Shown here piece by piece: positions 6,113-23,084 of a stretch of 43,202 nt of DNA. The translations under genes were made by a program, and so were the position numbers. The number at the start of each line of letters is the position of its first letter. Position 1 is the first letter of the stretch. Origin of the DNA: Chloroflexota bacterium (GTDB lineage Bacteria > Chloroflexota > Limnocylindria > Limnocylindrales > Limnocylindraceae); NCBI GenBank assembly GCA_039804225.1, contig JBDLWN010000005.1, forward strand, positions 1-43,202, given 5' to 3'. The notes beneath the pieces are model-generated. The model saw nothing but the letters and a program-made list of their open reading frames with translations, searched no databases and was not told the origin of the DNA.

Positions 6113-6116
6113 CGCG

Positions 6117-6707: not shown

Positions 6708-6741
6708 GTGCCCGACGGTAGCGCCGCGTAGGATCTACTGC

Positions 6742-7923: not shown

Positions 7924-7995
7924 AATCTGAGCGTAATCACTCGAGCCCCCGCTACGGGGTACGCGCCGGGTTGATGGATCGAACGGGGGAGTTTC

Positions 7996-8352
7996 ATGAC
8001 CGGACTCTGGTATGTCCTCGGTTTCGCAGTCGCAGGCGCCTCCTTTGTTTTCCTTACCATCGGCCTCGCCTGGCTCATCTCCCATCGCACGCGCGGCAGC
8101 CGCGGCAAGCAGGTTCCCTACGAGTCGGGCATCGACACGTACGGCGACACCCACGGACGCTTCGGCCTCTCCTTCTATCTCTACGCGCTCCTCTTCGTCG
8201 CCTTCGACGTTGAGATCGTCTTCATCTACATCTGGGCACTGAACTTCAAGGTGCTCTTGTTCGACGGGCTCATCTCCATGGCGATCTTCATCGGCGTACT
8301 GCTCGTCGGACTCGCCTACGCATGGCGTAAGGGGGTCTTGGCATGGCGGTAA
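7996..8352 (+). CDS. nuoA: NADH-quinone oxidoreductase subunit A
   Basis: 118 aa, 3 [42 protein letters not shown] is the NuoA signature (YECG...F.V.FY..A..F..FDVE..F..PW). A GGGGGAG Shine-Dalgarno lies just upstream. Confidence 0.93.
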
Positions 8353-9050
8353 CACGCGATCCGAAGTTCAGCAACCTTCCTGAGGTTCAGCCAGATGGCA
8401 GTATTCAGTCGCCCACCACTGTCGGCAACACGCTGTGGAGCACCGACGACCCACGCGCATACGGCGGACTTCCACTTGAGGCACATCCGAACCTAGAGCT
8501 CGCGCGATACGACGCAACGGGCGACGGCCGCGTTGATGATGCACGCTGGGGCGGCGCGCTCTCTGCCATTCCAACAAAGGCCGACGTTGTGCTCGATCTG
8601 ATTCGCGCCAACAGCCTCTGGCCACTGCTCTCTGGTCTCGCCTGCTGCGCCATTGAGATGATGTCGACAGCAACGCCAAAGAACGACATTGATCGCTGGG
8701 GCATGTTCCCTTTCCGTGCCAGCCCACGTCAGGCCGACGTGTTGATCGTTGCCGGAACACTCACGACAAAAATGGCTGAGCCACTCATTCGCTTGTGGGA
8801 GCAGATGCCTGAACCGAAGTGGGTCGTTGCGATGGGCGACTGCACCTGCTCCGGTGGACGCTACAAGCGCAGCTACTCCGTGGTGCAGGGAATTGATCGC
8901 GTCATGCCTGTTGACGTGTACATCCCCGGGTGCCCACCGCGACCAGAGGGACTGATTTACGGAATGATGAAGTTGCAGCAGTTGGTAAAAGATCGACGCG
9001 GCCACTGGCCAGAGCGCGCGATCGGTCCAACAGTTCCGAAGGGGATCTAA
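8343..9050 (+). CDS. nuoB: NADH-quinone oxidoreductase subunit B (cluster N2), with an N-terminal extension of about 55 aa
   Basis: [41 protein letters not shown] and PGCPPRPE are all present, so all N2 Cys ligands are retained. The start ATG overlaps the nuoA stop by 10 nt. Confidence 0.93.
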
Positions 9051-9602
9051 GTGGATCGCCGACTCGCTGCGCTGTTGCAAGAGAAGGTTGGCGAGCGACT
9101 CCTTACACCGGTGCGCCAGCGATACGATGAGAGCGAAATCCGTGTGGCACTCAACGATGCGACCGACACGTTGCGCACGCTGCACGACGATCCATCGCTG
9201 CGATTTGAAATGCTGATTGACCTCTGCGGTGTTGATACCGGCGAAGAGATGCAGGTTGTGTATCACCTCTCCTCATCCACAAGTGGCGATTGGCTGCGTG
9301 TGATCGTTCCAGGCCTTGATCGCGCTGCGCCACGAATTGCTTCGGCAACATTCATGTGGCCAGGTGCTGAATGGATGGAGCGCGAGGCCTACGACATGTT
9401 CGGCATTATTTTTGAAGGGAATCGCGATTTGCGTCGTATCTACATGCCAGACGATTTCCGCAGCTTCCCGCTGCGCAAAGATTTCTATCTCGCTGACGAC
9501 GCATCACGCTCACCAGCGGCTGGCGTGCGCAACATGGAGCGCGCGGGAACACCGGCCGATGCAACCGCAGCAACAGTGCTGCGCAAGAGCCCAGGGGTAT
9601 AG
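9051..9602 (+). CDS. nuoC: NADH-quinone oxidoreductase subunit C
   Basis: The GTG start follows the nuoB stop directly. LIDLCGVD...VVYHL...WPGAEWMEREAYDMFGIIFEGNRDLRRIYMPDDF..FPLRKDF is the NuoC/30-kDa signature. Confidence 0.92.
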   Translation: MDRRLAALLQEKVGERLLTPVRQRYDESEIRVALNDATDTLRTLHDDPSLRFEMLIDLCGVDTGEEMQVVYHLSSSTSGDWLRVIVPGLDRAAPRIASATFMWPGAEWMEREAYDMFGIIFEGNRDLRRIYMPDDFRSFPLRKDFYLADDASRSPAAGVRNMERAGTPADATAATVLRKSPGV

Positions 9603-9604
9603 CG

Positions 9605-10816
9605 ATGACCCAGCAGATGCGCCCATCACTCGACGATCCGCGAGTAGCGATTCCCGCCGAATCAACGTGGTACGAGCCGGCGCCAATTCCACAAACGGAG
9701 CGACAGGCGGAGTTCCTCACGCTGCGTGAAGGCGAGATGTTTGTGAACATGGGGCCGCAGCACCCATCAACACACGGCGTGCTCCGCGTGATTATCAAGG
9801 TGAATGGCGAGAAAGTCGTTGACCTCGATCCGGTGCTCGGCTATCTGCACCGCGGCGTGGAGAAGCTTTGCGAGAACGCCGACTATCACCAGGCGATCTG
9901 CTACACCGACCCACTCGAATATGTGAGCTCGCTCTTCTGCGAAGCGGCACCAGTTGCCGCCTTTGAAAAGTTGATGGATGTTGATGTGCCACGCCGCGCG
10001 CAGTACATCCGCGTGCTAACGATGGAATTGAACCGCATCGCGAGCCACACCCTCTTTCAGGGGTGGATGGCGCTCGACCTCGGTGGCATCACGCCAATTC
10101 TCTGGGCATTCATTGAACGCGACGAGATCGTCGACATGCTTGCGGCCCTCACCGGCCAGAAGCTCCTCTACAACTACTACCGAATCGGCGGGGTGAACGG
10201 TGACTTGAACCACGAGTTCATGAGTCGTCTCGGCACCTGGATGAGCCGCGCCGCCGCTCAGATTGATTCAAACCTGGCCCTGATCAACGAGAACGAGATC
10301 TTCGTGCGGCGCACGCGCGGCCTCGGCGTTCTTGACGCAAAGACCGCCGTCAAAATGGGGGTCACCGGCCCAAACCTGCGCGCGAGCGGTGTGCCGTTTG
10401 ACCTGCGCCGCGACCGCCCGTATCTCGTCTACCCGGAGCTCGAATTCGACGTGCCAACGCGCGACGAGGGCGACTCGCTGGCGCGCTACCTGGTGCGCAT
10501 GGACGAGATCAAACAGTCGATCCGCATCATTGACCAGGTCCTTCACGAGATGCCCGATGGCCCAGTGATGGCGAAGTTGCCGCGCCTTCTTCGTCCGCGA
10601 CCGGGCCGCGCATTCGGCGCCGTTGAGGGGCCGCGCGGCGTCTATGGCACCTACGCCATTAGCGACGGCACCGATCAGCCATTCCGCATGCGCATTCACG
10701 ACCCATCATTTGTGCACCTGCAACTTGTTGGACCGCTCACCAAGGGGAATCTCATCGCCGACACCATGGCGGTGATGGCAAGCCTTGACCCAGTCATGGG
10801 CGGAGTCGACAAGTGA
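9605..10816 (+). CDS. nuoD: NADH-quinone oxidoreductase subunit D
   Basis: NMGPQHPSTHGVLRVIIKVNGEKVVDLDPVLGYLHRGVEKLCE... and the C-terminal IHDPSF..LQ...L.KG..IAD..A...SLDPVMGGVDK are the NuoD/49-kDa signature. Confidence 0.95.
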   Translation: MTQQMRPSLDDPRVAIPAESTWYEPAPIPQTERQAEFLTLREGEMFVNMGPQHPSTHGVLRVIIKVNGEKVVDLDPVLGYLHRGVEKLCENADYHQAICYTDPLEYVSSLFCEAAPVAAFEKLMDVDVPRRAQYIRVLTMELNRIASHTLFQGWMALDLGGITPILWAFIERDEIVDMLAALTGQKLLYNYYRIGGVNGDLNHEFMSRLGTWMSRAAAQIDSNLALINENEIFVRRTRGLGVLDAKTAVKMGVTGPNLRASGVPFDLRRDRPYLVYPELEFDVPTRDEGDSLARYLVRMDEIKQSIRIIDQVLHEMPDGPVMAKLPRLLRPRPGRAFGAVEGPRGVYGTYAISDGTDQPFRMRIHDPSFVHLQLVGPLTKGNLIADTMAVMASLDPVMGGVDK

Positions 10817-12153
10817 GCGGCGCATCAATGACGTGGAATCGACTGACGCCAGCCGGCCGCGCACTAGCGGTGCTGCTCCCCGTTCTCGCTATTGGTGGCG
10901 CGCTCACCACGCTCCTCCTCGCCACATTTGGTGGCGCTATCGCCGCAACAATTGGCGCAAATCTGCCGATCGTGCGCTTCCTCGTTGCCGCCGTTGTCAC
11001 CTTCCTCATCTCAGTGCCCGTTGCATTCCTCTTGATTTATATGGAGATGAAGATCATCGCGCTCATGAACTTGCGCATTGGACCCGATCGCATCGGACCA
11101 GCAGGCGCAGTGATGAGTGTGGTGCACGGCCTCAAGGTGCTCATGAAAGAGGACTACACGCCACCGAGCGTTGATGTGCCGGTCTTCACCCTTGCGCCTG
11201 TGGTCGTTTATCTCGCAAGTTTCATGACCCTGCTGGTGATTCCGTTTGCACCAGAGCTCACCAGTATGGGCTTCGAGCTTGGACTTCTCTACTTCTTCGC
11301 GATCGGTGGGCTCAGCGTCGTTGGCCTGATGATGGCGGGCTGGTCGTCGTTCAATAAGTACTCGCTGCTCGGCGGCATTCGCGCCGCAGCACAGGCTATC
11401 AGCTACGAGATTCCGCTGACCCTCTCTGTGGTGGGCATCGTGATCCTTACCGGCACGCTCTCACTACCGAAGATCGTCGCTGCACAAGATGGTTCGTTCC
11501 TTGACTGGTTCATCTTCCGCCAGCCACTTGCGGCGATCATCTTCTTTATCGCAATCACCGCAGAGGCAAACCGCACCCCGTTCGACAACGCCGAGGCCGA
11601 CCAAGAGATCGTTGCCGGGTTCGCCACCGAGTATTCGGGGATGCGCTTCGGATTCTTCTTCTTCGCGGAGTACGTCAACGTCTTCATCGTCTCGGCACTC
11701 TTTAGCGCCGTCTTCCTCGGTGGGTCAAACCCACCGATTCACATTGACCTGAATCCGCAGATCCTGATCGACCTCAGTGCGCTCGGCATCGGGCTGCCAC
11801 TCATTGCAGGTCTCGCACCAGTTGTGGGCACGCTGCTCTTCGCCGCACCGATCTGGTTCGCGAGTTCGCGCATCAAGGGTTGGCAGGCACTCGTTGCCGG
11901 ATTCCTGATCTTTGGTGGCGTGTCGACCGCAGCGGTCGGCATCTGGGCCTTTGTGATGCTTCCGCCAGTGGCCAGCCTCATCTGGTTCCTGATCAAAACC
12001 TTCTCGCTCGTCTTCATCTTTGTTTGGATGCGCGGCACACTGCCACGCGCACGCATTGACCAGCTGATGGGCTTCGCGTGGAAGTGGCTCTTGCCAGCAT
12101 CGCTGCTAAACATTTTTGCAACGGCGTTTGCCGTGCTGATTGCGGGGAGCTAA
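10813..12153 (+). CDS. nuoH: NADH-quinone oxidoreductase subunit H, enlarged to 446 aa
   Basis: RIGPDRIGPAGAVMSVVHGLKVLMKEDYTP, GWSSFNKYSLLGGIRAAAQAISYEIPL, TAEANRTPFDNAEADQEIVAGF.TEYSGMRFGFFFFAEY and WMRGTLPRARIDQLMGFAWKWLLP are NuoH motifs. The GTG at 10813 overlaps the nuoD stop (GTGA). Confidence 0.93.
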   Translation: MSGASMTWNRLTPAGRALAVLLPVLAIGGALTTLLLATFGGAIAATIGANLPIVRFLVAAVVTFLISVPVAFLLIYMEMKIIALMNLRIGPDRIGPAGAVMSVVHGLKVLMKEDYTPPSVDVPVFTLAPVVVYLASFMTLLVIPFAPELTSMGFELGLLYFFAIGGLSVVGLMMAGWSSFNKYSLLGGIRAAAQAISYEIPLTLSVVGIVILTGTLSLPKIVAAQDGSFLDWFIFRQPLAAIIFFIAITAEANRTPFDNAEADQEIVAGFATEYSGMRFGFFFFAEYVNVFIVSALFSAVFLGGSNPPIHIDLNPQILIDLSALGIGLPLIAGLAPVVGTLLFAAPIWFASSRIKGWQALVAGFLIFGGVSTAAVGIWAFVMLPPVASLIWFLIKTFSLVFIFVWMRGTLPRARIDQLMGFAWKWLLPASLLNIFATAFAVLIAGS

Positions 12154-12155
12154 CC

Positions 12156-12380
12156 ATGCCAAGAATTCCTGGCACCGGACTGCTATCGGGGATGCGCCTC
12201 ACACTGACGCGCTTCTTCCAGCCGAAGCGCACGGTGCTGTATCCGGAGGTGAAGCCAGACATTGCTCCGCGCAACCGTGGCCGACTCGAACTAGTCACCG
12301 ACGAGCACGGCACGCTGAAGTGCGAGACCTGTTTCCAGTGCGCGCAGGCATGCCCAATCGAATGCATTGACATGGGCGGC
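12156..12380 (+). other. NuoI N-terminal half-domain (amphipathic N-terminus plus the first CxxCxxCxxxCP, nt 12321-12356)
   Basis: See the parent CDS. Similarity to NuoI ends right after CPIECIDMGG; no second Cys motif follows in this ORF. Confidence 0.75.
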
Positions 12381-12977
12381 ACCGACACGAAGGGGCGCTT
12401 CGCCGTGCATTGGGGCCCCGCCGAACAGTACGCAGAGCGACGCGAAGAGTCGGCGATGCGCCGCTCCGGTCGAACCGTCTCTGATGCTGCTGCTGCAACT
12501 GGGGCGACGATCAACACCGCGAAGGTTGACGAGATTCTTGAAGCGCACGACTACGACCCGCATCACATGCTCGCAATCCTTGAAGAGATCCAGGCCGCCT
12601 ACGGCTACCTGCCAGTGGATGCACTGAAGCGAGTGAGCCGCGCTACCGGCGCCTGGTACGCCATGGTCTACGGCACCGCCACCTTCTATAAGCACCTCGC
12701 ATTCGAGCCAGGGGTGACCCGTTCGATCGCCGTCTGCCGCTGCGCTAACTGCCTCGTCTCTGGGGCGGGCTCAGTGATGGGCACCCTCAGCTACGAATTC
12801 GGCACCGAGTTCGGCCGGGCGATCCCGTGGAGCAACCTGCGCCTCGAGTCGCTTCCGAGCCACCTTCCTGACGCCCCATCGCCATTGGTCGTCATTGATG
12901 GGGAGCCGCAGCGTGACCTGAGTGCCAAGAACGCCGCCAGCTGGGCCGCCGCACTTGCCGGCAGGTACGCCGCATGA
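12156..12977 (+). CDS. nuoI-nuoE: Chimeric subunit: the N-terminal half of NuoI (first 4Fe-4S motif only) fused through a linker of about 45 aa to a NuoE-like thioredoxin-fold domain
   Basis: The ATG at 12156 lies 2 nt after the nuoH stop, with GGGGAG upstream. aa 1-75 read LTLTRFFQPKRTVLYPEVKPDIAPRNRGRLELV...KCETCFQCAQACPIECI, the NuoI N-terminus plus a single CxxCxxCxxxCP. aa ~122-273 read ILEAHDYDPHHMLAILEEIQAAYGYLPVDALKRVSRATGAWYAMVYGTATFYKHLAFEPGVTRSIAVCRCANC, the NuoE layout. The stop overlaps the next gene (ATGA). Confidence 0.85.
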   Translation: MPRIPGTGLLSGMRLTLTRFFQPKRTVLYPEVKPDIAPRNRGRLELVTDEHGTLKCETCFQCAQACPIECIDMGGTDTKGRFAVHWGPAEQYAERREESAMRRSGRTVSDAAAATGATINTAKVDEILEAHDYDPHHMLAILEEIQAAYGYLPVDALKRVSRATGAWYAMVYGTATFYKHLAFEPGVTRSIAVCRCANCLVSGAGSVMGTLSYEFGTEFGRAIPWSNLRLESLPSHLPDAPSPLVVIDGEPQRDLSAKNAASWAAALAGRYAA

Positions 12978-14233
12978 AGCGACTGAACGCCCCCAAGGGA
13001 TGGAGCCAGCTCCTCTTCGTGGCGCCGACCGAGCCGTGGGCGGCACTCCGCGCCGCCGCGTCGGCGGGGGCCGCTGGTACGACCGCAACCCTGATCGCCG
13101 CCGGCCTTCGCGGCCGTGGCGGCGGCGGCTTCCTTACTGGAGCTAAGTGGCAGGCGACCGCCGCCGAGCCAGCGAGCCAGTACTTCGCCGTGGCGAACGG
13201 CTACGAATCCGACCCCGCCGTCTTCACCAACCGCCTCCTCATGGAGGAGAATCCACAGGCAATTGTCGAAGGCCTCGCTATTGCTGCTCTTACGGTGGGT
13301 GCCCGCGAAGCGTTCATCGCCGTGCGCGCCGAATACACAGAAGCGATCAAACGACTTGAAGCGGTCATCGCCAACGCCGAACGCGAGGGCATCCTCGGGG
13401 CCACGCTGCTGGGCACCGGCCGCGAACTGATCATCACCGTTCGCCCACTCCAAGGCTCCAGCATGATCGGCGAAGAGACGGTGTTGATGAAGGCGCTCGC
13501 CGGCAAGCGCGGCCAGCCAGAGCAGACCCCGCCATACCCATCAGAGGTCGGCTACCTCGGCAAGCCAACCGCCGTGAACAACGTCGCCACACTCGCTGCG
13601 GTGCCGTGGATCCTCAACAACGGCGCAGAGGCCTTCGCACAGATTGGCGACTCCGCACAGCCAGGCACCGTGCTCGTGCAGATCAGTGGTTCGGTCGCGA
13701 ACCCTGGCGTCATTGAAGTACCGACCGGCACGCCACTCAACGAGATCATCGCGGCAGCGGGCGGCACTGCAAGCGGCGCTTCGATCAAGGCACTACTCGC
13801 TGGTGGGCCAACGGGCGGATTTATTCCGGCGAACCTTTTCGGCGGCACCCCCTATAGCGGCGCGGGCCTCAAGGGTGTTGGCGCACACATCGGCTCGGGC
13901 GCACTCCTCGCACTCGACAACTCGGTCGCCATTCCAGAGCTCGCCACCATGCTGACGCGCTGGTGTGCCGACGAGGCGTGCGGCAAGACCATTCCGTGCC
14001 GCATCGGCACACGCCGGCTCGCCGAGATCGGCCAGCGCTTTGTTGACGGCTTGGCCGGCCCCGCCGATGCAGAGCGGCTGCAGAAGCTCGCCGCCGATGT
14101 CACTGATAGCGCCCTCTGCGCACATGAGGCGCTTGCGCCAAGCCCGCTCCTCACGGGGGTGCGATACTTTGCCTCTGAGTTTGGACCTGCCGTTGCCGCA
14201 TCGTCGGCAACACCAACGAGCGGACGGAGCTGA
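12974..14233 (+). CDS. nuoF: NuoF-like (51-kDa/HydB/StnB-type) flavoprotein subunit, divergent
   Basis: GLRGRGGGGFLTGAKW, ANGYESDPAVFTNRLLME, GSSMIGEETVLMKALAGKRGQPEQTPPYP, GKPTAVNNVATLA and DEACGKTIPCRIG...ALCAHE align to the NuoF motif series (GLRGRGGAGFPTG, NADESEPG, GAGAYICGEE, RxKPPFP, PTxxNNVET, ESCGKCxPCREG...C). Several substitutions fall at ligand positions. Confidence 0.85.
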   Translation: MKRLNAPKGWSQLLFVAPTEPWAALRAAASAGAAGTTATLIAAGLRGRGGGGFLTGAKWQATAAEPASQYFAVANGYESDPAVFTNRLLMEENPQAIVEGLAIAALTVGAREAFIAVRAEYTEAIKRLEAVIANAEREGILGATLLGTGRELIITVRPLQGSSMIGEETVLMKALAGKRGQPEQTPPYPSEVGYLGKPTAVNNVATLAAVPWILNNGAEAFAQIGDSAQPGTVLVQISGSVANPGVIEVPTGTPLNEIIAAAGGTASGASIKALLAGGPTGGFIPANLFGGTPYSGAGLKGVGAHIGSGALLALDNSVAIPELATMLTRWCADEACGKTIPCRIGTRRLAEIGQRFVDGLAGPADAERLQKLAADVTDSALCAHEALAPSPLLTGVRYFASEFGPAVAASSATPTSGRS

Positions 14234-14235
14234 TC

Positions 14236-16782
14236 ATGGCCGACCTGATTGATCGACCGGCAAGCGCAGTAACACCAGTTTCGCGCACGATTACTCCAGC
14301 GCCACCGGCCGAGGTCGCCGTCGACAAGTTGCTCACCACACGCAGCCCACAACGACCGCAGCGAACGCCAACCTTCTACGTCGAGATCGATGGACAGAAG
14401 CTTGAAGCGTTTGAAGGACAGACCATCCTTGAGGTGTGCCGCGCGAACGGCATTGAGGTACCAACGCTCTGCTACGACCCGAAACTGCCAGGGTTCGGCG
14501 CCTGCCGCATGTGTGTCGTTGATGTCGAAGGATGCGACCAGCCTTCCATCAGCTGTTCAGCGAAGGCGGAGCCAGCACAGGTCGTATCAACGCAGACCGA
14601 TCGCATTCGCGAGATTCGCCGCACCAACCTTGAGCTGATCTTCAGCGACCACAACGCCTACTGCTTGCCGCCATGCCAGAACAAGTGCCCGAGCCACATT
14701 GACATCCCTGGATTCTTGAAGGCGAACGCAGAGTCGCAGTTCCGCGAGTCGGCGCGAATCTTCAAGCGCACCATTCCATTCCCAAGCATCCTTGGCCGCG
14801 TCTGTCCGGCGCCATGCGAAGACCACTGCCGTCGCGACGAGGTAGACGAGGCGATCGCCATTCGCGACAGCCACCGTTACGCCGGCGACCAGGTGTTGAA
14901 GGCAATGTGGGACGAAGATCTCGATCCACCTGTGCCGTTTGAGCTGCAGCCGAAGACTGGTAAGCGCGTCGCAGTGATTGGTTCTGGCCCAGCGGGCGCA
15001 TCTGCTGCGTACTACCTCCTTGTTGCTGGACATGACGTCACCATCTTTGAGAAAGATCCAGAGCCAGGTGGCATGTTGCGCTACGGCATTCCGCAGTACC
15101 GACTACCAAAGATTGAGGTGCTTGACGGCGAGTACCAGTCCATCACGCGACTCGGTGGCCGCTTTGAGTGCGGCAAGATGCTTGGCCGTGACTTCACCGT
15201 TGCTGACCTAAAGGCGCAGGGCTACGACGGCGTCGTTGTTGCAATCGGCTGCTACGACACCAACGACCTCGGCATCCCGGGCGAAGATGCCGACGGCGTG
15301 ATTGACGGCCTCGACTATCTCCACACCGCCGCACTCGGCCTCACCTACCCAGGTCACGAGGGGAGCCGCGTCGTTGTTGTTGGTGGCGGCTACACCTCCA
15401 TGGACTGCTCCCGAACGAGTGTGCGACAAGGGGCTAAGGAGGTCACCCTCGTCTACCGCCGCGACATGAAGGACATGCCAGCCGCCGACGAAGTGCACGA
15501 GATGATCGAAGAGGGGGCGCGCGCCATCTTCCAGGCAGGCCCAACCCGTGTCGTCACCGATGCGAACAACAAGGTGATTGGCCTCGAGTTCATTCGCATG
15601 CAGCTCGGCGCACCAGACGCTTCGGGCCGCCGCCGACCAGAGCCAGCACCCGGCACGGAATTCATTATCGAGTGCGACCGCATTTTGAAGGCGATCGGCC
15701 AGGGCCCCGACATGACCTGGGCAAGTGTCGGCGCAGATGGTGTTGCAACCACGAAGAACGGCCGACTTAAGGCAGATGCTGTGACCTTCCAGACCGGCCG
15801 CGACGGCGTCTTCGGCTGTGGCGACCTGCGCAATGGCGCAACAACCGTCGTCGCCTCGATCGCTGATGGCCGACGCTGCGCCTACGCCGTTGACGCATAT
15901 CTGCAGGGGCTCGACCTGTCGGAGATTCGCAACCGACAGACACTCGCTGAGCCACAGCCGGAGTTCTTGAGCATCGTGCCGTTCACCGCCGAGGTGAAGG
16001 AGCCGCGCTTGCGCCTGAAGGCACTTCCAGCCGAAGAGCGCAAGAACGACTACATCCAGTACGAAATCCCCTACACCAAGCCCGAGGTGATGGCGGAGAG
16101 CACACGTTGCTTGCAGTGCACCTGTGAAGCGATCGGCTTCTGTGACCTGCGACGACTCGGTATTGAATACGGCACCACACTGAAGACGCTTGAGAAGGAT
16201 CACCACGGCGGCGCTGGATTCCGTTCCATTACCGAAAACCGCTGGACCGGAGCAAACCATGACTACATTCGCGACGACTCGCACGCATTTATCTTGCGCG
16301 AGCCATCACGCTGCATCGACTGCGGTCGCTGCGCCAACGTGTGCGCCGAGGTTGTTGGTGCCGCCTGCTACGACTTCATGCGCACCGGTTTCGACACGCT
16401 CGTCACCACGCCGCTTGACATGAGCTTGAACGAGTCGCCATGCGTCTCGTGCGGACGATGTGCAGAAACCTGCCCAACCGGCGCACTGATGCCGAAGCCG
16501 CGAATTCTCACTAAGTACGAGGTCGACGAGTCGCGCTGCATCCTTTGCGGCATCTGCGTTGACGCTTGCCCATACGACGCGCTCCGTAGCGGCTTTGATT
16601 TTGAACTCGCGCACACCGATCGAAGCGAGCCGATGATTGACCTCATCGCGCTCTCAAAGTTGGAACGCACATCAGAGGCAACCTTCATTCGCGGCGAAGC
16701 AAACTGGGAGAACACCGTTGCGGGTCGACGCTACGATCCGGCACGACAGCTTCCGGTGCTGCCGCAGAGCCTCCGGAAGTAG
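14236..16782 (+). CDS. Chimeric 848-aa Fe-S flavoprotein, in order: NuoG/HoxU-type 2Fe-2S domain; GltD/NfnB-type FAD-NAD(P)H oxidoreductase; N5-like 4Fe-4S; hydrogenase-type 2x[4Fe-4S] domain; C-terminal half of NuoI. There is no molybdopterin-like domain.
   Basis: FYVEIDGQKLEAFEGQTILEVCRANGIEVPTLCYDPKLPGFGACRMCVVDVEG...SC = NuoG N-terminal 2Fe-2S. GRVCPAPCEDHC, KRVAVIGSGPAGASAAYYL, PGGMLRYGIPQYRLPK, VVVVGGGYTSMDCSRTSVRQGAKEVTLVYRR, GAPDASGRRRPEP and GVFGCGDLRNGATTVVASIADGR = GltD small-subunit series. CLQCTCEAIGFCDLRRLGIEYG (16108-) is N5-like. CIDCGRCANVC (16312-) plus CVSCGRCAETCPTGAL (16441-) form a HydA/HoxU-type dicluster. YEVDESRCILCGICVDACPYDALRSGFDFELAHTDRSE (16516-) is the NuoI second half. 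Confidence 0.85.
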   Translation: MADLIDRPASAVTPVSRTITPAPPAEVAVDKLLTTRSPQRPQRTPTFYVEIDGQKLEAFEGQTILEVCRANGIEVPTLCYDPKLPGFGACRMCVVDVEGCDQPSISCSAKAEPAQVVSTQTDRIREIRRTNLELIFSDHNAYCLPPCQNKCPSHIDIPGFLKANAESQFRESARIFKRTIPFPSILGRVCPAPCEDHCRRDEVDEAIAIRDSHRYAGDQVLKAMWDEDLDPPVPFELQPKTGKRVAVIGSGPAGASAAYYLLVAGHDVTIFEKDPEPGGMLRYGIPQYRLPKIEVLDGEYQSITRLGGRFECGKMLGRDFTVADLKAQGYDGVVVAIGCYDTNDLGIPGEDADGVIDGLDYLHTAALGLTYPGHEGSRVVVVGGGYTSMDCSRTSVRQGAKEVTLVYRRDMKDMPAADEVHEMIEEGARAIFQAGPTRVVTDANNKVIGLEFIRMQLGAPDASGRRRPEPAPGTEFIIECDRILKAIGQGPDMTWASVGADGVATTKNGRLKADAVTFQTGRDGVFGCGDLRNGATTVVASIADGRRCAYAVDAYLQGLDLSEIRNRQTLAEPQPEFLSIVPFTAEVKEPRLRLKALPAEERKNDYIQYEIPYTKPEVMAESTRCLQCTCEAIGFCDLRRLGIEYGTTLKTLEKDHHGGAGFRSITENRWTGANHDYIRDDSHAFILREPSRCIDCGRCANVCAEVVGAACYDFMRTGFDTLVTTPLDMSLNESPCVSCGRCAETCPTGALMPKPRILTKYEVDESRCILCGICVDACPYDALRSGFDFELAHTDRSEPMIDLIALSKLERTSEATFIRGEANWENTVAGRRYDPARQLPVLPQSLRK
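14644..15915 (+). other. GltD/NfnB-like flavoprotein module inserted inside the NuoG-like Fe-S chain
   Basis: It begins at SDHNAYCLPPCQNKCPSHIDIPGFL. Here a NuoG-type HxxxC runs straight into the GltD-type C...CP...IP motif. It ends near ADGRRCAYAVDAYLQGL. Two Rossmann GxGxxG/A motifs are present (14968-, ~15370-). Confidence 0.8.
16498..16782 (+). other. NuoI C-terminal half-domain (second CxxCxxCxxxCP, nt 16537-16572, plus the FE.A...R tail)
   Basis: YEVDESRCILCGICVDACPYDALRSGFDFELAHTDRSEPMIDL follows the canonical NuoI pattern Y.ID...CI.CG.C.EACP.DAI.....FE.A...R..L. Confidence 0.75.
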
Positions 16783-16785
16783 CCT

Positions 16786-17346
16786 ATGCCGCTCCCCGAC
16801 GTCATCCCGTTTATCGGCCTCGGCTGGTCAGACGTCCTCTTCTTACTGCTGAGCGGCGTAGTCCTTGCCGCAGCGATCGGCGTGGTCTTTGGCCGTGACA
16901 TCATCAAGAGCGGCTTATTCTTGATCCTCACCCTTGGCGCACTCGCAGGTATCTACGTAATGTTGGGCGCCGCGATCGTTGCGGGCGCACAGGTGCTCGT
17001 CTACATCGGTGCAATCAGTGTGCTCATCCTTTTTGCCATCATGCTCACGCAGTCAAAGGTTGCGCCAGTAAAGCTGGCGTTCCAGACACAGGTGGCGCCT
17101 GCCGCCCTTGCCTCGGTCCTACTCGCTGTGATCTTCGGCCTCGCGTTTGGAAGCACAGACTGGGGCTCATCAGTGTTCGCCGATACGCCAGCCGCAACTG
17201 GTACGGCCCCTGTTGCCGCCGCACTCTTCGGCCCGTACCTGCTTGCATTTGAGATCGCAAGCGTGCTCATCCTCTCTGCCGTGATAGGTGGCCTCTATCT
17301 CGCGATGGAACCAAAGACGGACGAAGTGGGCGAGGAGGGGCAGTGA
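16786..17346 (+). CDS. nuoJ: NADH-quinone oxidoreductase subunit J
   Basis: 186 aa, 5 TM. AGAQVLVYIGAISVLILFAIMLT is the NuoJ signature (AxxQxxVYxGAxxVLxxFVxMxL). It starts 3 nt after the upstream stop. Confidence 0.9.
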   Translation: MPLPDVIPFIGLGWSDVLFLLLSGVVLAAAIGVVFGRDIIKSGLFLILTLGALAGIYVMLGAAIVAGAQVLVYIGAISVLILFAIMLTQSKVAPVKLAFQTQVAPAALASVLLAVIFGLAFGSTDWGSSVFADTPAATGTAPVAAALFGPYLLAFEIASVLILSAVIGGLYLAMEPKTDEVGEEGQ

Positions 17347-17663
17347 GCCAAATCGCTGGGAACCTGGAGCCATATCTCGTCCTCTCAGGGATGCTCTTTG
17401 CTATCGGCTCCTTCGGCTTCCTTGCACGTCGAAACGCAATCACGATGTTGATGAGTATTGAGTTGATGCTGAATGCCGTGAACCTTGCCGCACTCGCGTT
17501 CGGCGCATTTATTCCGACACTCGCAGGGGAGGGGGCAGCCTTTGCGCTGTTGATTATCGCCGTGGCGGCGGCTGAGGCCACCGTCGGCCTGGCGATCGTG
17601 ATTGCCATCTTCCGTAACCGGAAGACACCGCTGGTTGACGAGTACGACACGATGAGGCAGTAG
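17343..17663 (+). CDS. nuoK: NADH-quinone oxidoreductase subunit K
   Basis: 106 aa, 3 TM. RRNAITMLMSIELMLNAVNLAALAF...IAVAAAEATVGLAIVIAIFRNRKT is the NuoK signature, including both conserved Glu. GTGA overlap with nuoJ. Confidence 0.92.
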   Translation: MSQIAGNLEPYLVLSGMLFAIGSFGFLARRNAITMLMSIELMLNAVNLAALAFGAFIPTLAGEGAAFALLIIAVAAAEATVGLAIVIAIFRNRKTPLVDEYDTMRQ

Positions 17664-17666
17664 CGG

Positions 17667-19616
17667 ATGATCACTGCAGAGACCCTGGTCGAAGCGGGCG
17701 CCCTTCCGGGCTACGCGCCGCTCCTCCTTCTCCTCCCGCTGCTCGGCTTCGCCTTCACGGCGGCGGTTGGCCGACGCCTCGGCAAACTGGCCCACATCGT
17801 GCCGCTCGGGGCGATCGTCGCCACCTGGGCACTCTCCATGAGCCTGGCGATCCCCGCCCTCACAGGGGGCCTCGGTGAGGCGGGTGCCTCGATGAAGCTC
17901 TTCACCTGGATCGCCTCGGGCGACCTGAGCTTCGGGCTCGGCCTGCACGTCGACGCCCTTACGGGAGCCCTCCTTCTCGTAGTAACCACGGTCGGCGCCC
18001 TCGTGCACCTCTATAGCGTCGGCTACATGAGTCACGACAACGGCTATTGGCGCTTCTTCGCCTACCTGAACCTCTTCATGTTCTCAATGATGCTCCTCGT
18101 TCTCGCCGATAACCTCCTCGTCGTCTTTGCCGCCTGGGAGCTCGTCGGCCTCTCCTCGTACCTGCTGATCGGCTTCTGGTACACGAAGACCGCACCAGGC
18201 TTGGCCGCCAAGAAGGCCTTCATTACAAACCGAGTCGGTGACGTTGGCTTCGTTCTCGGACTGATGGGTCTCGTGGTCGTCTTCGGCTCACTCGACATCA
18301 GTACGGTGCTTGCGGGGGTTGTAGCGGGCGAGCTCGTTGGTCCAGCAGCGACGGTGATTGCCTTACTGATCTTCTGCGGCGCGGTTGGGAAGTCGGCGCA
18401 GTTCCCACTTCACGTCTGGCTCCCCGACGCCATGGAGGGGCCAACTCCGGTCAGCGCCCTCATCCACGCAGCGACCATGGTGAACGCGGGCGTCTATCTC
18501 GTGGCACGAATGAGCCCACTCTTCGCTGCAAGCCCTGAGGCAATGATCATTGTTGCCGCAATCGGCATCTTCACCGCGATCTTCGCGGCCTCAATTGCGC
18601 TCACGCAGACCGACATCAAGCGCGTGCTCGCCTTCTCAACCCTCTCGCAGCTCGGCTACATGTTTGCCGCACTCGGTGTTGGTGCCTGGGTTCCCGCAAT
18701 CTTCCATCTCGTCACGCACGGATTCTTCAAGGGGCTCCTCTTCCTCGGCTCAGGTTCGGTGATTCATGCGGTGAACGGCGAGCAAGAGATGACAAAGATG
18801 GGTGGCCTCTGGCGCAAGATTCCTATTACGTACGCCACGATGTTGGTCGGAACCGTAGCGATTGCTGGCCTACCGCCACTCGCCGGGTTCTGGTCAAAAG
18901 ACGAAATTCTCACCGAAGCATTCAAATTTGGATACGCGTGGGTGTGGCTCGTCGGCATGATCGTTGCCGCCATGACCGCCTTCTACATGTTCCGTCTCAT
19001 GGGACTCACCTTCTGGGGGAAGAGCCGCGTGCATGACGAATCACATGTACACGAATCGCCATGGACGATGACGCTGCCGCTGATCATTCTGGCGGTGCCA
19101 TCGATTGCCATTGGCGCAGCACTCGGCTTCCCAGTCGCAGACGGCGTCATTGTGCATGCGCTTGAACCAATCTTCCATCCGGCGGATGAGATACTCGGCA
19201 TCGAACATAAGCCTTGGGAACTGTTTGGCATCGGCGGACTTCTCATGCTTGGGAGCGTTACCGTTGCCTCAATCGGCACAGCGGTCGGCGTGCGCCTCTT
19301 CCGCAGTGACAACAACGAGTTCCTTGGTCGCGTCACCAAGCGCTTGCAGCCGCTCTACGACGGAAGCCGCAACCGTTGGTACTTTGACGACCTCAATGAT
19401 CTCGTATTCGTGCGCTTTGGACGAAAGTTTTCGAACGCACTCTGGTGGTTTGACCGCCGCGTTGTTGACGGCACTGTGAACGGCGTTGCTTCGCTCACTT
19501 CGAGTGGCGGTCGCGGCTTGCGGCAGATCCAAACCGGTCGCGTGCAAAACTATGCACTCGGCATCGCATTTGGCCTTGTGGCCATTGCTGCCGCTTACCT
19601 GGTGATTGCGGGATGA
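17667..19616 (+). CDS. nuoL: NADH-quinone oxidoreductase subunit L (antiporter-like, with C-terminal lateral helix region)
   Basis: 649 aa. WELVGLSSYLLIGFWY, GKSAQFPLHVWLPDAMEGPTPVSALIHAATMVNAGVYL and FSTLSQLGYMF are NuoL/Mrp-type motifs. Confidence 0.93.
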   Translation: MITAETLVEAGALPGYAPLLLLLPLLGFAFTAAVGRRLGKLAHIVPLGAIVATWALSMSLAIPALTGGLGEAGASMKLFTWIASGDLSFGLGLHVDALTGALLLVVTTVGALVHLYSVGYMSHDNGYWRFFAYLNLFMFSMMLLVLADNLLVVFAAWELVGLSSYLLIGFWYTKTAPGLAAKKAFITNRVGDVGFVLGLMGLVVVFGSLDISTVLAGVVAGELVGPAATVIALLIFCGAVGKSAQFPLHVWLPDAMEGPTPVSALIHAATMVNAGVYLVARMSPLFAASPEAMIIVAAIGIFTAIFAASIALTQTDIKRVLAFSTLSQLGYMFAALGVGAWVPAIFHLVTHGFFKGLLFLGSGSVIHAVNGEQEMTKMGGLWRKIPITYATMLVGTVAIAGLPPLAGFWSKDEILTEAFKFGYAWVWLVGMIVAAMTAFYMFRLMGLTFWGKSRVHDESHVHESPWTMTLPLIILAVPSIAIGAALGFPVADGVIVHALEPIFHPADEILGIEHKPWELFGIGGLLMLGSVTVASIGTAVGVRLFRSDNNEFLGRVTKRLQPLYDGSRNRWYFDDLNDLVFVRFGRKFSNALWWFDRRVVDGTVNGVASLTSSGGRGLRQIQTGRVQNYALGIAFGLVAIAAAYLVIAG

Positions 19617-21124
19617 ACGACATGCCGATCCTGTCGCTGATCACCTTCCTTCCGCTCCTTGGCGCGCTCGGCATCGCAGCACTCCCATCGTCACGTCCGA
19701 GCCTGATTCGTTTTGCTGCACTCGGGGTGTCACTGATCACCTTCGCACTGAGCCTCGGCATGCTGGTTGGCATTCGCGGCCAGAGTGGTGAATTTGCCTT
19801 CAGCGAACAGCTCTCGTGGATTCCATCGTTCGGCATCACGTATCACCTTGGTGTGGACGGGCTCTCTGGCGCACTTGTTGTCTTGACGACGCTGCTCAGC
19901 TGGATCTGCATCCTGGCGAGCTTCGGTCCAATTCAGACTCGCGTGAAGGAGTACTTCATTAGCTTCCTCATCCTCGAGACGGGCATGCTCGGTGTCTTCT
20001 TGGCGCTCGACCTATTCCTCTTCTACATCTTCTGGGAGATCGTGCTCGTGCCGATGTATCTGATCATCGGCATCTGGGGCGGGGCCGACCGCATCTACGC
20101 CACAATCAAGTTCGTCCTCTACACGCTCGTTGGATCACTCCTCATGCTTGTAGCGATCCTGGCGACGGCCTTTAGCCATCAGGCCGCGACAGGCTCATGG
20201 ACCGGGGCGTTCGACTTGCTGGCGTTGCGGGGCACGATCACCGATCCAACGCTGCAGATCCTCGGGTTTGCCGCCTTCGCGCTCGCCTTTGCCATCAAGG
20301 TGCCAATGTTCCCGTTCCATACGTGGCTCCCCGATGCGCACGTACAGGCCCCAACCGCAGGCTCGGTCATCCTCGCCGGCGTGCTCTTGAAGCTTGGCGG
20401 CTACGGCTTCATTCGATTTGCGATCCCGCTCTTCCCAGACGGCGCGCAGCTCTTCGCGCCGCTCATGATCGTTCTCTCGGTGATCGCCATCATCTATGGC
20501 GCACTTGTGGCGATCGTGCAGACCGACCTCAAGAAACTTATCGCGTATAGCTCCGTTAGCCACATGGGCTTCGTAACGCTCGGCATCTTCACCTTCAATC
20601 AGCAGGGTGTCGACGGCGCAATCTTGCAGATGCTTAACCACGGCCTCATCACGAGCGGACTCTTCTTGCTCGTCGGAATTGGCTACGAACGCACCCATGA
20701 TCGCGAGATCGCCAAGATGGGCGGCTGGGCGGTGCGCACCCCCGTGTACGCTGCGCTCTTCGGCTTCTTTCTCTTCGCGTCAGTTGGCCTTCCTGGCCTC
20801 TCGGGCTTCGCTGGTGAATTCCTGGTGCTGCTCGGAGCCTTCATCGCCAACCCAATGGTCGCAGGTGCATCAACAGTTGTGATGATCCTTGCTGCGGTCT
20901 ACTTGCTCTACATGTACCAGCGCGTCTTCACCGGACCACTCTCACCGTTCTTAAAGGGTCTCGGCTCAAAGCTGACCGATGTCACACCAACCGAGATCTT
21001 GACGCTCGCCCCCCTTGCGGCGCTGGTCGTGATCTTTGGTGTAATGCCAACGCTGTTGACGAGCTCTTTTGCAAAAAGCGTTGAGATCTTCCTGATGTCA
21101 GCTATCAGTGTGGTCGGACCATGA
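19613..21124 (+). CDS. nuoM: NADH-quinone oxidoreductase subunit M
   Basis: 503 aa. FYIFWEIVLVPMYLIIGIWGG, KVPMFPFHTWLPDAHVQAPTAGSVILAGVLLKLGGYG and IAYSSVSHMGFV. ATGA overlap with nuoL. Confidence 0.93.
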   Translation: MNDMPILSLITFLPLLGALGIAALPSSRPSLIRFAALGVSLITFALSLGMLVGIRGQSGEFAFSEQLSWIPSFGITYHLGVDGLSGALVVLTTLLSWICILASFGPIQTRVKEYFISFLILETGMLGVFLALDLFLFYIFWEIVLVPMYLIIGIWGGADRIYATIKFVLYTLVGSLLMLVAILATAFSHQAATGSWTGAFDLLALRGTITDPTLQILGFAAFALAFAIKVPMFPFHTWLPDAHVQAPTAGSVILAGVLLKLGGYGFIRFAIPLFPDGAQLFAPLMIVLSVIAIIYGALVAIVQTDLKKLIAYSSVSHMGFVTLGIFTFNQQGVDGAILQMLNHGLITSGLFLLVGIGYERTHDREIAKMGGWAVRTPVYAALFGFFLFASVGLPGLSGFAGEFLVLLGAFIANPMVAGASTVVMILAAVYLLYMYQRVFTGPLSPFLKGLGSKLTDVTPTEILTLAPLAALVVIFGVMPTLLTSSFAKSVEIFLMSAISVVGP

Positions 21125-22560
21125 ACAACGACCTGCTCACCCTCGCGCCACTCATCACCGTCGCCCTTGGCGCGATTGCCGTCCTTGCGAGCGACATGAT
21201 TACGCCAAATCGAAACCATGCGCCGGTTGCCGTTGCGCTTGCCGCACTCGGCGTTACCGCAGCACTGCTCATTAATCAGGGGGGCAGTACTGCTAGCGCT
21301 CTTGGTGGCAGCTACGTCGCTGGGCCATTCGTTGCATTTATCGGCCTGCTCGGAATTTCAATCGTGGCCATCACGCTCCTGATTGCGCCGGCATACCTTG
21401 CTGCGCGCAAGTATCCAACGGCTGAACTCGCCGCGACGCTCCTCTTCGCCCTTGCTGGTGCAATTCTGCTTGGCGCCGCAACTGATCTCATCACACTCTT
21501 CATTGGCCTCGAGCTGATGGTTATCCCTGGGTATGTCCTCGCTGGATACGCAAAGCGCGACCCGCTGAGCACCGAGGGTGCGGTGAAGTACTTCCTGCTC
21601 GGTAGCTTCTCGAGCGCTATCCTGCTCTTCGGCATCGTGGTGCTGTGGGGCGTTGCAGGTACCGCGTCACTCAGTGGTATCGCAACGGTGCTCGCATCTG
21701 GAGAGGCGAACGCAGGACTCGCTGTTGCACTCGCGCTGATCACCACAGGGTCGGCCTTCAAGATTGCGGCGGTTCCGTTCCACTACTGGACTCCCGACGC
21801 CTATCAAGGCTCCCCAACGCCAATCACGGGGTATCTCTCAGTCGGCCCGAAGGTTGGCGCATTTGTTCTGCTCATCAAGCTCTTTGTGATTGCGCTCGCG
21901 CCACTCGCGACGCTATGGATCCCCGTGATGGTGGTGCTGGCGGCGGCAACCATGACGCTCGGCAACCTCGTAGCTCTCACGCAGAGCAACGTGAAGCGCA
22001 TGCTCGCCTACTCGTCGATCGCGCACACCGGATACCTGATGGTTGGCATCGTTGCGGCGGGCGCAGGAGAGGCGGCGGGAATCGCCGGCATTCTCTTCTA
22101 CGCTGCGGCATACGCGTTTATGAACCTCGGTGCGTTTGCATTCCTGACTGCGCTCCAAGGCCGACCTGGCGCCACGACGCAGCTCTCTGACCTTGCTGGG
22201 CTCGGTCGCAAGCATCCACGCATGGCAATCCTCGCGACAATCTTCCTGTTGAGCCTCACCGGTATTCCACCGACGGCGGGCTTCTTCGCCAAGACCTACG
22301 TGATCCTGGCCGCGGTGCAAGCGGGCGGGCCAGCCACGATCCTCGCCGTGATTGCCGTGCTCAACGCTGCCATCGCCGCCTTCTACTACCTGCGCGTCAT
22401 CGTCTACCTCTTCATGCGCGACCCGGCGGATCCAGCGGTTCAAGTGGCCGAGGGGTCAATGCTGCGCGCCGGCCTGCTGATCGCCGCCATCGGCACCGTA
22501 GCGCTCGGCCTCGCCCCGACCCCGATCATCGAGGCGGTCATTCAAGCCCTCGCTCGGTAG
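21121..22560 (+). CDS. nuoN: NADH-quinone oxidoreductase subunit N
   Basis: 479 aa. GLELMVIPGYVLAGY, KIAAVPFHYWTPDAYQGSPTPITGYLSVGPKVGAF and LAYSSIAHTGYLMVG. ATGA overlap with nuoM. Confidence 0.93.
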   Translation: MNNDLLTLAPLITVALGAIAVLASDMITPNRNHAPVAVALAALGVTAALLINQGGSTASALGGSYVAGPFVAFIGLLGISIVAITLLIAPAYLAARKYPTAELAATLLFALAGAILLGAATDLITLFIGLELMVIPGYVLAGYAKRDPLSTEGAVKYFLLGSFSSAILLFGIVVLWGVAGTASLSGIATVLASGEANAGLAVALALITTGSAFKIAAVPFHYWTPDAYQGSPTPITGYLSVGPKVGAFVLLIKLFVIALAPLATLWIPVMVVLAAATMTLGNLVALTQSNVKRMLAYSSIAHTGYLMVGIVAAGAGEAAGIAGILFYAAAYAFMNLGAFAFLTALQGRPGATTQLSDLAGLGRKHPRMAILATIFLLSLTGIPPTAGFFAKTYVILAAVQAGGPATILAVIAVLNAAIAAFYYLRVIVYLFMRDPADPAVQVAEGSMLRAGLLIAAIGTVALGLAPTPIIEAVIQALAR

Positions 22561-22564
22561 GCTT

Positions 22565-22583
22565 CACTCCCGCAGCGGGGGTG
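22565..22583 (+). terminator. Possible stem-loop terminator after nuoN
   Basis: CACTCCCG-cag-CGGGGGTG forms an 8-bp stem (one G-U pair) with a 3-nt loop, 5 nt after the nuoN stop. No U-tract follows, so this is a weak call. Confidence 0.3.
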
Positions 22584-22653
22584 TAACAATCCAGGTTCCC
22601 GCTCCGCCGCCGCCCTGTCGCATCAGCAAGAATTCATATAAACTTCTGCTCCT

Positions 22654-23082: not shown

Positions 23083-23084
23083 CT

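Follow-up and report, generated by a model that had tools for sequence, protein, structure and literature searches.

By which routes has complex I come to draw its electrons from pyridine nucleotides? The origin of its NADH-oxidizing module (N-module) is a long-standing question in bioenergetic evolution, and the accepted picture comprises one acquisition of NuoEFG by an 11-subunit ancestor together with special cases (FpoF, ferredoxin-fed NDH-1, and the predicted Nuo-Bfu). We analyzed a 43,202-nucleotide stretch of Chloroflexota DNA (contig JBDLWN010000005.1; the whole stretch is hereafter called the window) in which a nuo operon carries three E/F/G-like genes, encoding proteins denoted E', F', and G', inside nuoI, the two halves of which are fused to the first and the last of them. 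Taken together, the evidence makes it probable that a complex I of mostly 11-gene ancestry captured a soluble transhydrogenase-type operon and that the product is a proton-pumping NADPH(/NADH):quinone oxidoreductase with a reassembled NuoI. The locus would then represent a separate natural capture with its scar still visible, in the form of a gene cut in two and fusions at both ends, and the predicted respiratory enzyme, burning NADPH directly, would be widespread in abundant soil and lake Chloroflexota.

The operon consists of 13 genes on the plus strand (7996-22560), and open reading frame (ORF) listing combined with Pfam annotation showed that every junction is either an overlap or a gap of 0-3 nt. 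The order is nuoA-B-C-D-H, [NuoI N-half::NuoE'], NuoF', [NuoG-N::GltD-like::FeS::NuoI C-half], nuoJ-K-L-M-N, so that all 11 core complex I subunits (A, B, C, D, H, I, and J-N) are encoded, with NuoI in two halves; translated NuoB contains the N2-type ligand pattern CC...GDC...GCPP (reading GDCTCSGG...PGCPPRPE). An earlier reading of the sequence without database searches (the sequence-only reading) had placed the E/F/G-like genes inside nuoI rather than between nuoD and nuoH and had held that removal of the insert leaves the order A-B-C-D-H-I-J-K-L-M-N. Both statements were confirmed: the nuoD-nuoH interval contains no E/F/G-like gene, the two genes overlapping by 4 nt, and the 11-subunit order emerges only once the N-module-like cassette encoded inside nuoI is removed. 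The hallmarks of the 14-subunit enzyme are missing, with no nuoEFG between nuoD and nuoH and no molybdopterin-like C-terminal domain in G'.

The two parts of NuoI are recognizable at the outer ends of the cassette. ORF6 starts with an ATG at 12156, three bases past the nuoH stop codon (an alternative GTG at 12078 overlaps nuoH), and its residues 1 to ~92 represent the NuoI N-half and include the first CxxCxxCxxxCP motif, CETCFQCAQACP. In phmmer searches against PDB, this half matched residues ~7-96 of the NuoI proteins of E. coli, M. smegmatis, and T. thermophilus. The second half, comprising the second CxxCxxCxxxCP motif and an FDFE tail, makes up the last ~90 residues of ORF8. Joined in silico, the halves are collinear with intact Chloroflexota NuoI (27-40% identity over 124-149 columns) and contain all eight cysteines. 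Alignment with intact NuoI places the break in the loop of variable length that connects the ferredoxin halves, with no duplicated sequence.

The origin of the cassette is most clearly indicated by G'. Over residues 49-780, ORF8 is collinear with 9bov_A (E 4.5e-165), StnC (8oh5_C; 1.3e-142), and NfnA (9n5u_A; 1.8e-137), and true NuoG proteins in PDB match it only in the ~100-residue 2Fe-2S domain. As described in PMC10482914, StnC comprises a NuoG-like domain, an inserted GltD NADPH/flavin adenine dinucleotide (FAD) domain, and an FdhF-like domain that is inactive. The first two, whose combination characterizes BfuA, are present in ORF8, and the NuoI C-half replaces the third. The NAD(P)H fold of G' contains the motif VYRRxxxxMPA, which also occurs in the NADPH-dependent enzymes StnC, NfnA, T. 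maritima NfnB, and P. furiosus NfnL. Among the 150 best representatives (clusters at 50% identity), more than 100 are long proteins (about 650-1400 aa) collinear with ORF8 over residues ~49-780. Because G' shares this rare NuoG-N/GltD/FeS architecture, which we regard as the decisive character, the cassette is assigned to the relatives of Nfn-Bfu/Stn and not to a displaced NuoEFG.

The captured module is unevenly conserved. All iron-sulfur ligands and both dinucleotide-binding glycine motifs of G' are invariant in an alignment of ten distant homologues, and mean pairwise identity among the split types (loci with nuoI divided as in the window) reaches 59% for the C-terminal [4Fe-4S] domain (Gc) and 53% for the GltD domain, compared with 50% for NuoD and 40% for F'. 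Conservation within the cassette peaks in Gc, which is 88% identical to its counterpart in the sister family. Given the invariant ligands and the identities exceeding those of NuoD and F', the GltD domain and the wire leading to NuoI are the most constrained elements.

Gene neighborhoods and domain trees point in the same direction. The gene order E-F-[Gn::GltD::Gc] (Gn, the NuoG-type N-terminal domain) was seen in loci L090-L102, and soluble-type loci of this kind, with a long C-terminus on the last protein and no NuoI pieces, were found in Thermosediminibacter, Thermovenabulum, Clostridia, Dehalococcoidales, Solirubrobacterales, and Thermoanaerobaculia. In the tree of GltD domains, the split types form one clade (Shimodaira-Hasegawa-like approximate likelihood ratio test [SH-aLRT] support of 99) placed with the Stn-type domains. 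In PDB searches, ORF7 reached 298-301 bits with HydB/NfnB/StnB and 225-241 bits with bacterial NuoF, and the best matches of the E' domain were HydC, NfnC, and 9bov_C, ahead of NuoE. In the NuoF tree, canonical Chloroflexota NuoF form a 100% clade with F' outside it; this tree was dropped as an arbiter between a Stn-type and a canonical sister group of F', being unrooted and with long branches. The comparison of E' and F' with NuoEF proposed in the sequence-only reading thus came out in favor of HydB/NfnB/StnB and HydC/NfnC by score, with the NuoF tree giving no decision on the sister group.

Although the cassette is related to electron-bifurcating enzymes, its E' and F' components are reduced. 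Limnocylindria E' keeps the Cx4C pair and has lost CxxxC, leaving 2 of the 4 cysteines of the 2Fe-2S site, and Ktedonobacteria and two further Chloroflexota families (f19 and f4) lack the thioredoxin-like domain entirely; hence, the [2Fe-2S] cluster typical of BfuC is absent from E'. F' (419 aa, versus 584-630 aa for bifurcating BfuB) is confined to the core, matching residues 146-511 of the 584-aa StnB, and lacks the N-terminal 2Fe-2S and C-terminal 2x[4Fe-4S] domains (clusters B2-B5) that define BfuB. The N3 motif of Limnocylindria F' reads EACGKTIPC, with the second cysteine lost, and the (A/C)DE(G/S)(D/E)PG motif for NADH and flavin mononucleotide (FMN) is altered to NAYDADP or NGYESDP in every split type (NGYESDP in the window). 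Judged by these motifs, the pair is a former bifurcating core, degraded yet retained, and electron bifurcation by the split complex is unlikely. The same losses bear on the possibility that the complex is a multi-pool machine, that is, a transhydrogenase or confurcating unit in which quinone reduction and pumping are coupled to NADH, NADPH, and perhaps ferredoxin, comparable to the predicted Nuo-Bfu. Such a role would fit the bifurcating activity of the parent family (PMC10482914; PMC9304861) and the maintenance of both NuoF-like and GltD-like nucleotide domains in all lineages; with clusters B2-B5 gone from F', the E' site lost or its domain deleted, and the ADE motif changed throughout, we consider it improbable.

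The route of electrons that we propose instead starts at the GltD-like domain. In StnABC, electrons pass along FAD-C7-C6-C5-C4-C3 to StnB, and the C1/C2 branch toward the FdhF-like domain is a non-functional remnant (PMC10482914). Since the NuoI C-half is fused where the vestigial C1/C2 branch of StnC ends, a path from the GltD FAD into NuoI suggests itself. The NuoI halves, carried by two polypeptides, would reassemble the 2x[4Fe-4S] fold (N6a/N6b) and thereby clamp the module onto NuoB/C/D. NADPH would be oxidized at the FAD of the GltD-like domain, and electrons would flow through the two [4Fe-4S] clusters of GltD, the NuoG-like wire, reassembled NuoI, and N2 to quinone, driving proton pumping. 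E', which is fused to the NuoI N-half and has lost its cluster, may be a tether, and F', which keeps the flavin loop with an altered NADH/FMN motif, may either admit electrons from NADH as a second entry or have a mainly structural role.

The gene context, inside nuo and fused to both NuoI halves, argues against a soluble enzyme, and a proton-pumping NADPH(/NADH):quinone oxidoreductase is the most likely function predicted from these features. The genome is that of a Candidatus Limnocylindrus (1.06 Mb, 116 contigs, 83% complete), in which a single NuoD locus represents the only complex I. PntA/PntB are present on contig C92:5811-8703 (-), with 42-47% identity to E. coli; no second NuoF was found in this genome, and no homologue of E. 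coli Ndh (NDH-2) was detected at E < 1e-5 in the 83%-complete assembly. The presence of PntAB and the lack of a detectable NDH-2 or a second NuoF argue that the enzyme must serve general respiration, and it may also use NADH.

This gene complement also bears on whether the complex might run in reverse, with the proton-motive force driving electrons from quinol to NADP+ and thus supplying biosynthetic NADPH. Reverse flow could suit the H2/CO-oxidizing Ktedonobacteria and Limnocylindria, and Limnocylindria are reported to carry rhodopsins. Ktedonobacteria, moreover, possess a canonical NADH complex I as well as the split complex, suggesting that the latter has a different role, and the reversibility of complex I is established (discussed in PMC4758237). 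In Limnocylindrus, however, only one complex I and no NDH-2 were found, so a forward respiratory role is needed, and PntAB is already there for NADPH supply. We therefore regard reverse operation as an unlikely primary task.

To place the backbone of the operon, ~75 further nuo loci were fetched, annotated by BLAST with the domains of the window as queries, and classed by context as 11-gene with intact nuoI, 14-gene, NuoG-only, B-C::D-I, split, or NuoI::GltD. A NuoD search of the genomes behind the Stn-type loci, intended to supply outgroups, yielded usable nuo operons only in Clostridiales and Thermoanaerobaculia. In the NuoD tree, the split types form one clade (support 86) within a larger clade (86) otherwise holding only 11-gene, B-CD-I, and NuoI::GltD types, without any 14-gene operon. 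The approximately unbiased (AU) test rejected the grouping of Limnocylindria NuoD with 14-gene operons (p = 2.7e-5), and did not reject a single NuoD clade of all split types (p = 0.62). Window NuoB groups with the 11-subunit operons and other split types, and window NuoH falls on the 11-subunit side (SH-aLRT 91); the concatenation of B, D, and H gave a 97% bipartition for the 11-subunit side and an AU p of 1.4e-4 against placement with the 14-type.

The distal subunits have a different affiliation. NuoJ, L, M, and N of Limnocylindria and family f4 fall in a clade holding 14-gene operons with 89-100% support (SH-aLRT 89 for NuoJ; support of 99 for NuoL and NuoN), although this "14-type" clade also holds a few 11-gene operons, whereas J/L/M/N of Ktedonobacteria and f19 remain with the 11-gene operons. 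A single split-type clade was rejected by AU for NuoL (p = 2.6e-11) and NuoM (p = 5e-54). Because the incongruence between B/D/H and J-N is independent of rooting, we conclude that the operon of the window is a mosaic with a seam between ORF8 and nuoJ, a position that coincides with the cluster break in other split lineages. The concatenation of B, D, H, L, M, and N, read as a single history, puts Limnocylindria with the 14-type and Ktedonobacteria with the 11-type; this reading was rejected, as the per-subunit trees and AU tests show the incongruence to be real. The 11-subunit-type backbone claimed in the sequence-only reading therefore holds for NuoB, NuoD, and NuoH and fails for NuoJ, L, M, and N; nesting inside a clade with 14-subunit operons, which that reading had named as the outcome that would speak for rearrangement, was found for the latter group and not for the former. 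The broader claim, that the N-module was gained independently of classical complex I through a transhydrogenase-type cassette entering nuoI, is largely supported: insertion of such a soluble cassette is upheld by the G' architecture, the E'/F' scores, and the NuoB/D/H trees. The sequence-only interpretation as a whole is supported in part.

The split design extends well beyond the genus of the window, for which the nearest named records are Candidatus Limnocylindrus metagenome-assembled genomes (MAGs; 97% identity), followed by Limnocylindrales and Limnocylindria. Near full-length homologues of ORF8 including the NuoI C-half are encoded by ~84 of the 401 sampled Chloroflexota species genomes, in four arrangements. 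All Limnocylindria have the full contiguous split operon; f19 has A-B-C-D-H-[In::E']-F'-[G'::Ic] (In and Ic, the NuoI halves) with J-N elsewhere; in f4, B-D-[In]-F'-[G'::Ic] is separate from C-H-J-K-L-M-N and from A; and in Ktedonobacteria the genes are distributed over the three clusters A-C-D-H, B-[In::E']-F'-[G'::Ic], and J-K-L-M-N. A complete canonical A-B-C-D-E-F-G-H-I(intact)-J-N operon accompanies the split set in closed genomes of Ktedonobacteria. The sequence-only reading had presented capture as the solution of one lineage; this did not hold, the design being common to Ktedonobacteria and others and the event old. The survey of relatives that it recommended did uncover intact nuoI without the insert, in 11-gene operons of many Chloroflexota, a Clostridiales MAG, and Thermoanaerobaculia. 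Related states are extant as well, among them Stn-type operons of the soluble kind, 11-gene operons whose nuoI is intact, the NuoI::GltD fusion (see below), and gene sets that are either scattered or contiguous.

The comparisons point to the following history as the most likely one. A complex I of a mostly 11-gene lineage (A-B-C-D-H-I-J-K-L-M-N, no NuoEFG) took up a three-gene Nfn-Bfu/Stn operon encoding a BfuC/NuoE-like protein, a BfuB/NuoF-like protein, and BfuA (NuoG-like with the GltD insertion). The cassette entered the loop-coding part of nuoI, which joined the N-half to E' and placed the C-half behind G', where it substitutes for the inactive FdhF-like domain of StnC. Capture probably occurred once, before the divergence of Limnocylindria, Ktedonobacteria, and at least 2 other Chloroflexota lineages. 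Later, in Limnocylindria, the proximal block (A-H plus the cassette) was joined to a J-K-L-M-N block of the 14-gene-type clade.

An alternative history is rearrangement, in which the canonical nuoEFG native to the lineage would have left its place between nuoD and nuoH, entered nuoI, and subsequently gained GltD and lost the molybdopterin-like domain. The position of window NuoJ-N in a clade holding 14-subunit operons would agree with this, as would a sister relationship of F' to canonical NuoF, with which the NuoF tree is compatible. It would leave unexplained the collinearity of G' with StnC/NfnA down to the GltD insertion point and the higher scores of E' and F' against Bfu-type proteins, and it runs against the 11-subunit affinity of NuoB/D/H, for which AU rejects the alternative, and against the intact canonical A-N operon that Ktedonobacteria keep beside the split set; we judge it very unlikely. 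Mis-assembly of nuoI or pseudogenization of the operon has a negligible probability, since the layout recurs in dozens of independent MAGs and other assemblies, including closed genomes, all frames are open with coupled junctions, and the cluster ligands of G' and both NuoI halves are all conserved.

Capture followed by NADPH-driven pumping is nevertheless opposed by several observations. The combination of PntAB with no detectable NDH-2 means that pure NADPH specificity would make re-oxidation of NADH costly. Every split type keeps F', the evolution of which is only moderately accelerated (F/D identity ratio of 0.82 in split types versus 0.91 in canonical operons); F' may therefore still be catalytic, and NADPH may not be the only substrate. 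The NuoF tree, unrooted and with long F' branches, stays compatible with F' as the sister of canonical NuoF. Finally, the trees are quick maximum likelihood reconstructions covering Chloroflexota and two outside genomes, with no cyanobacterial, archaeal, or proteobacterial references, and the AU hypotheses were set only after the trees had been viewed.

A second type of insertion was found in two small Chloroflexota genomes, in which the operon reads A-B-C-D-H-[NuoI-N::GltD::NuoI-C]-J-N, the bracketed proteins of 627-628 aa being each encoded by one gene (L113:12830-14713 (-) and L118:13201-15087 (-)). The flavoprotein domain occupies the same NuoI loop as the split site. NuoD places these two loci with Dehalococcoidia-like 11-gene operons and well away from the split clade, and their GltD domain falls outside the Stn-plus-split group; accordingly, the placement in both trees marks the fusion as a separate event at the same site. 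On this basis, we tentatively suggest, while giving the idea somewhat less than even odds, that the NuoI inter-ferredoxin loop is a general docking port, used once by a Stn/Nfn operon and independently by a bare GltD, that the products are NADPH:quinone proton pumps, and that modules were later swapped between lineages. If so, these systems would constitute a third, convergent origin of pyridine-nucleotide-driven complex I.

Comparison with known systems sets the locus apart from each of them. StnABC/NfnABC (Sporomusa ovata 8OH5; 9BOV/9BP5; 9N5U) comprise the same three proteins, encoded in identical order, whereas the cassette is embedded in a nuo operon, has its first and last proteins fused to NuoI halves, and lacks the FdhF-like domain, the extra BfuB clusters, and the E' 2Fe-2S site; it therefore has no intact bifurcating core. 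Canonical 14-subunit complex I shares the 11 core subunits, a peripheral module of E/F/G-like proteins comprising a flavoprotein and an iron-sulfur wire to NuoI, and a related J-N arm; in the window, by contrast, the module lies inside nuoI, NuoI is divided between two polypeptides, the NuoG-like protein contains a GltD flavoprotein, and the quinone-binding module belongs to another clade. The 11-subunit operons have the same gene order minus the insert and kindred NuoB/D/H, but their nuoI is intact, no NAD(P)H module is encoded, and the J-N genes of Limnocylindria come from another clade.

Among the nearest published systems is Nuo-Bfu, predicted in Geobacter, Deferribacteres, Planctomycetes, and Nitrospirae (Schut et al. 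2022, PMC9304861), which likewise joins complex I to a Bfu-type ABC input unit instead of NuoEFG. There, BfuABC occupies the canonical place in a 14-gene cluster, the bifurcating core is full, GltD is absent, and nuoI is intact; the window differs on each of these points. A gltD-related flavoprotein replaces NuoI in Mbx-like operons (Degli Esposti 2015, PMC4758237), so that in these complexes, too, a NuoB/D-type module is connected to a flavoprotein of the GltD type that uses NAD(P)(H). They are, however, of the Mrp/Mbx type, with the flavoprotein substituting for NuoI, whereas the window keeps NuoI, in split form, within a true nuo operon (in L113 and L118, NuoI is interrupted). A literature search within the library accessible to us returned partial precedents only, with no description of a split nuoI or of an Nfn-Bfu cassette in complex I. 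Many Chloroflexi have been described as possessing 13 of 14 subunits, "missing only NuoG" (PMC4453560), a remark for which the split design could account. The finding is testable in a cultured carrier, Thermogemmatispora carboxidivorans, which has the split set in addition to a canonical complex I and whose ORF8 homologue (WP_052888283.1) is annotated as an "FAD-dependent oxidoreductase".

Features of the nuo operon in the window, with the domains of the fused proteins listed separately
Feature	Position	Strand	Evidence and remarks
nuoA	7996..8352	+	Pfam Oxidored_q4, E 4.8e-31
nuoB	8343..9050	+	Pfam Oxidored_q6, E 1.5e-29; long N-terminal extension
nuoC	9051..9602	+	Pfam Complex1_30kDa, E 3.9e-38
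nuoD	9605..10816	+	Pfam Complex1_49kDa, E 3.6e-84
nuoH, 446 aa	10813..12153	+	Pfam NADHdh, E 9e-100
ORF6, NuoI N-half::NuoE'	12156-12977	+	
NuoI N-half, N-terminal part of ORF6	12156..12431	+	PDB matches to NuoI; collinear with intact NuoI
NuoE'/BfuC-like domain of ORF6	12501..12977	+	Pfam 2Fe-2S_thioredx, E 4e-18
ORF7, NuoF'/BfuB-core-like flavoprotein, 419 aa	12974..14233	+	Pfam Complex1_51K, SLBB, and NADH_4Fe-4S
ORF8, G'::NuoI C-half, 848 aa	14236-16782	+	
G' part 1, NuoG-type N-terminal 2Fe-2S domain	14356..14640	+	Pfam Fer2_4; cysteines invariant in alignment
G' part 2, GltD/NfnB-like FAD and NAD(P)H domain with two [4Fe-4S] sites	14656..16035	+	Pfam Fer4_20 and Pyr_redox_2
G' part 3 (Gc), NuoG/HydA-type [4Fe-4S] domain (Fer4_Nqo3-like)	16156..16500	+	Pfam Fer4_Nqo3 and Fer4
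NuoI C-half, C-terminus of ORF8	16501..16782	+	Alignment with intact NuoI; kept in all split types
nuoJ	16786..17346	+	Pfam Oxidored_q3
nuoK	17343..17663	+	Pfam Oxidored_q2
nuoL	17667..19616	+	Pfam Proton_antipo_M/N/C
nuoM	19613..21124	+	Pfam
nuoN	21121..22560	+	Pfam

Several further observations concern the operon and its surroundings. A Methyltransf_28 (NDUFAF7/MidA-type) gene at 6616-7923 (+) ends 72 nt upstream of nuoA; the mitochondrial homologue of this gene is a complex I assembly factor. A scan of 6000-23500 for promoters and terminators returned fewer sites than in shuffled sequence. NuoH contains an insert of ~80 aa that is also present in the sister family (447 aa) and missing in a more distant Limnocylindria family (336-339 aa), and is therefore not tied to the split. 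In one Limnocylindria family, genes for a PAS-domain protein (134 aa) and a metallo-beta-lactamase-fold protein (281 aa) are located between G'::NuoI-C and nuoJ (L005:9897-11143; L004 ~9819-11291), an insertion that falls exactly at the phylogenetic seam of the mosaic.

Variation was also seen among the relatives. The operons of L146-L149 read A-(B)-C-D-NuoG-H-I-J-N, with a NuoG-like gene and no detectable NuoE/F, and the Limnocylindria J-N block is most closely related to those of L148 and L149. In L120, L121, L122, L126, L132, and L134, NuoB, a NuoC::D fusion, and a NuoI-like protein form stand-alone clusters whose neighborhood contains neither NuoH nor membrane genes; NuoD of the Chloroflexota B-C::D-I clusters groups with the 11-gene operons. 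Some Ktedonobacteraceae have a tandem second copy of G'::NuoI-C (L015:6403-8810 and 9018-11426 (-); also G030:C38), the second copy in L015 being in two pieces, a 100-aa 2Fe-2S piece and a 704-aa GltD::FeS::NuoI-C piece. In T. carboxidivorans, a gene of the isocitrate/isopropylmalate dehydrogenase family (L008:3127-4332 (-)) lies upstream of nuoB-[In::E']-F'-[G'::Ic], on the opposite strand.

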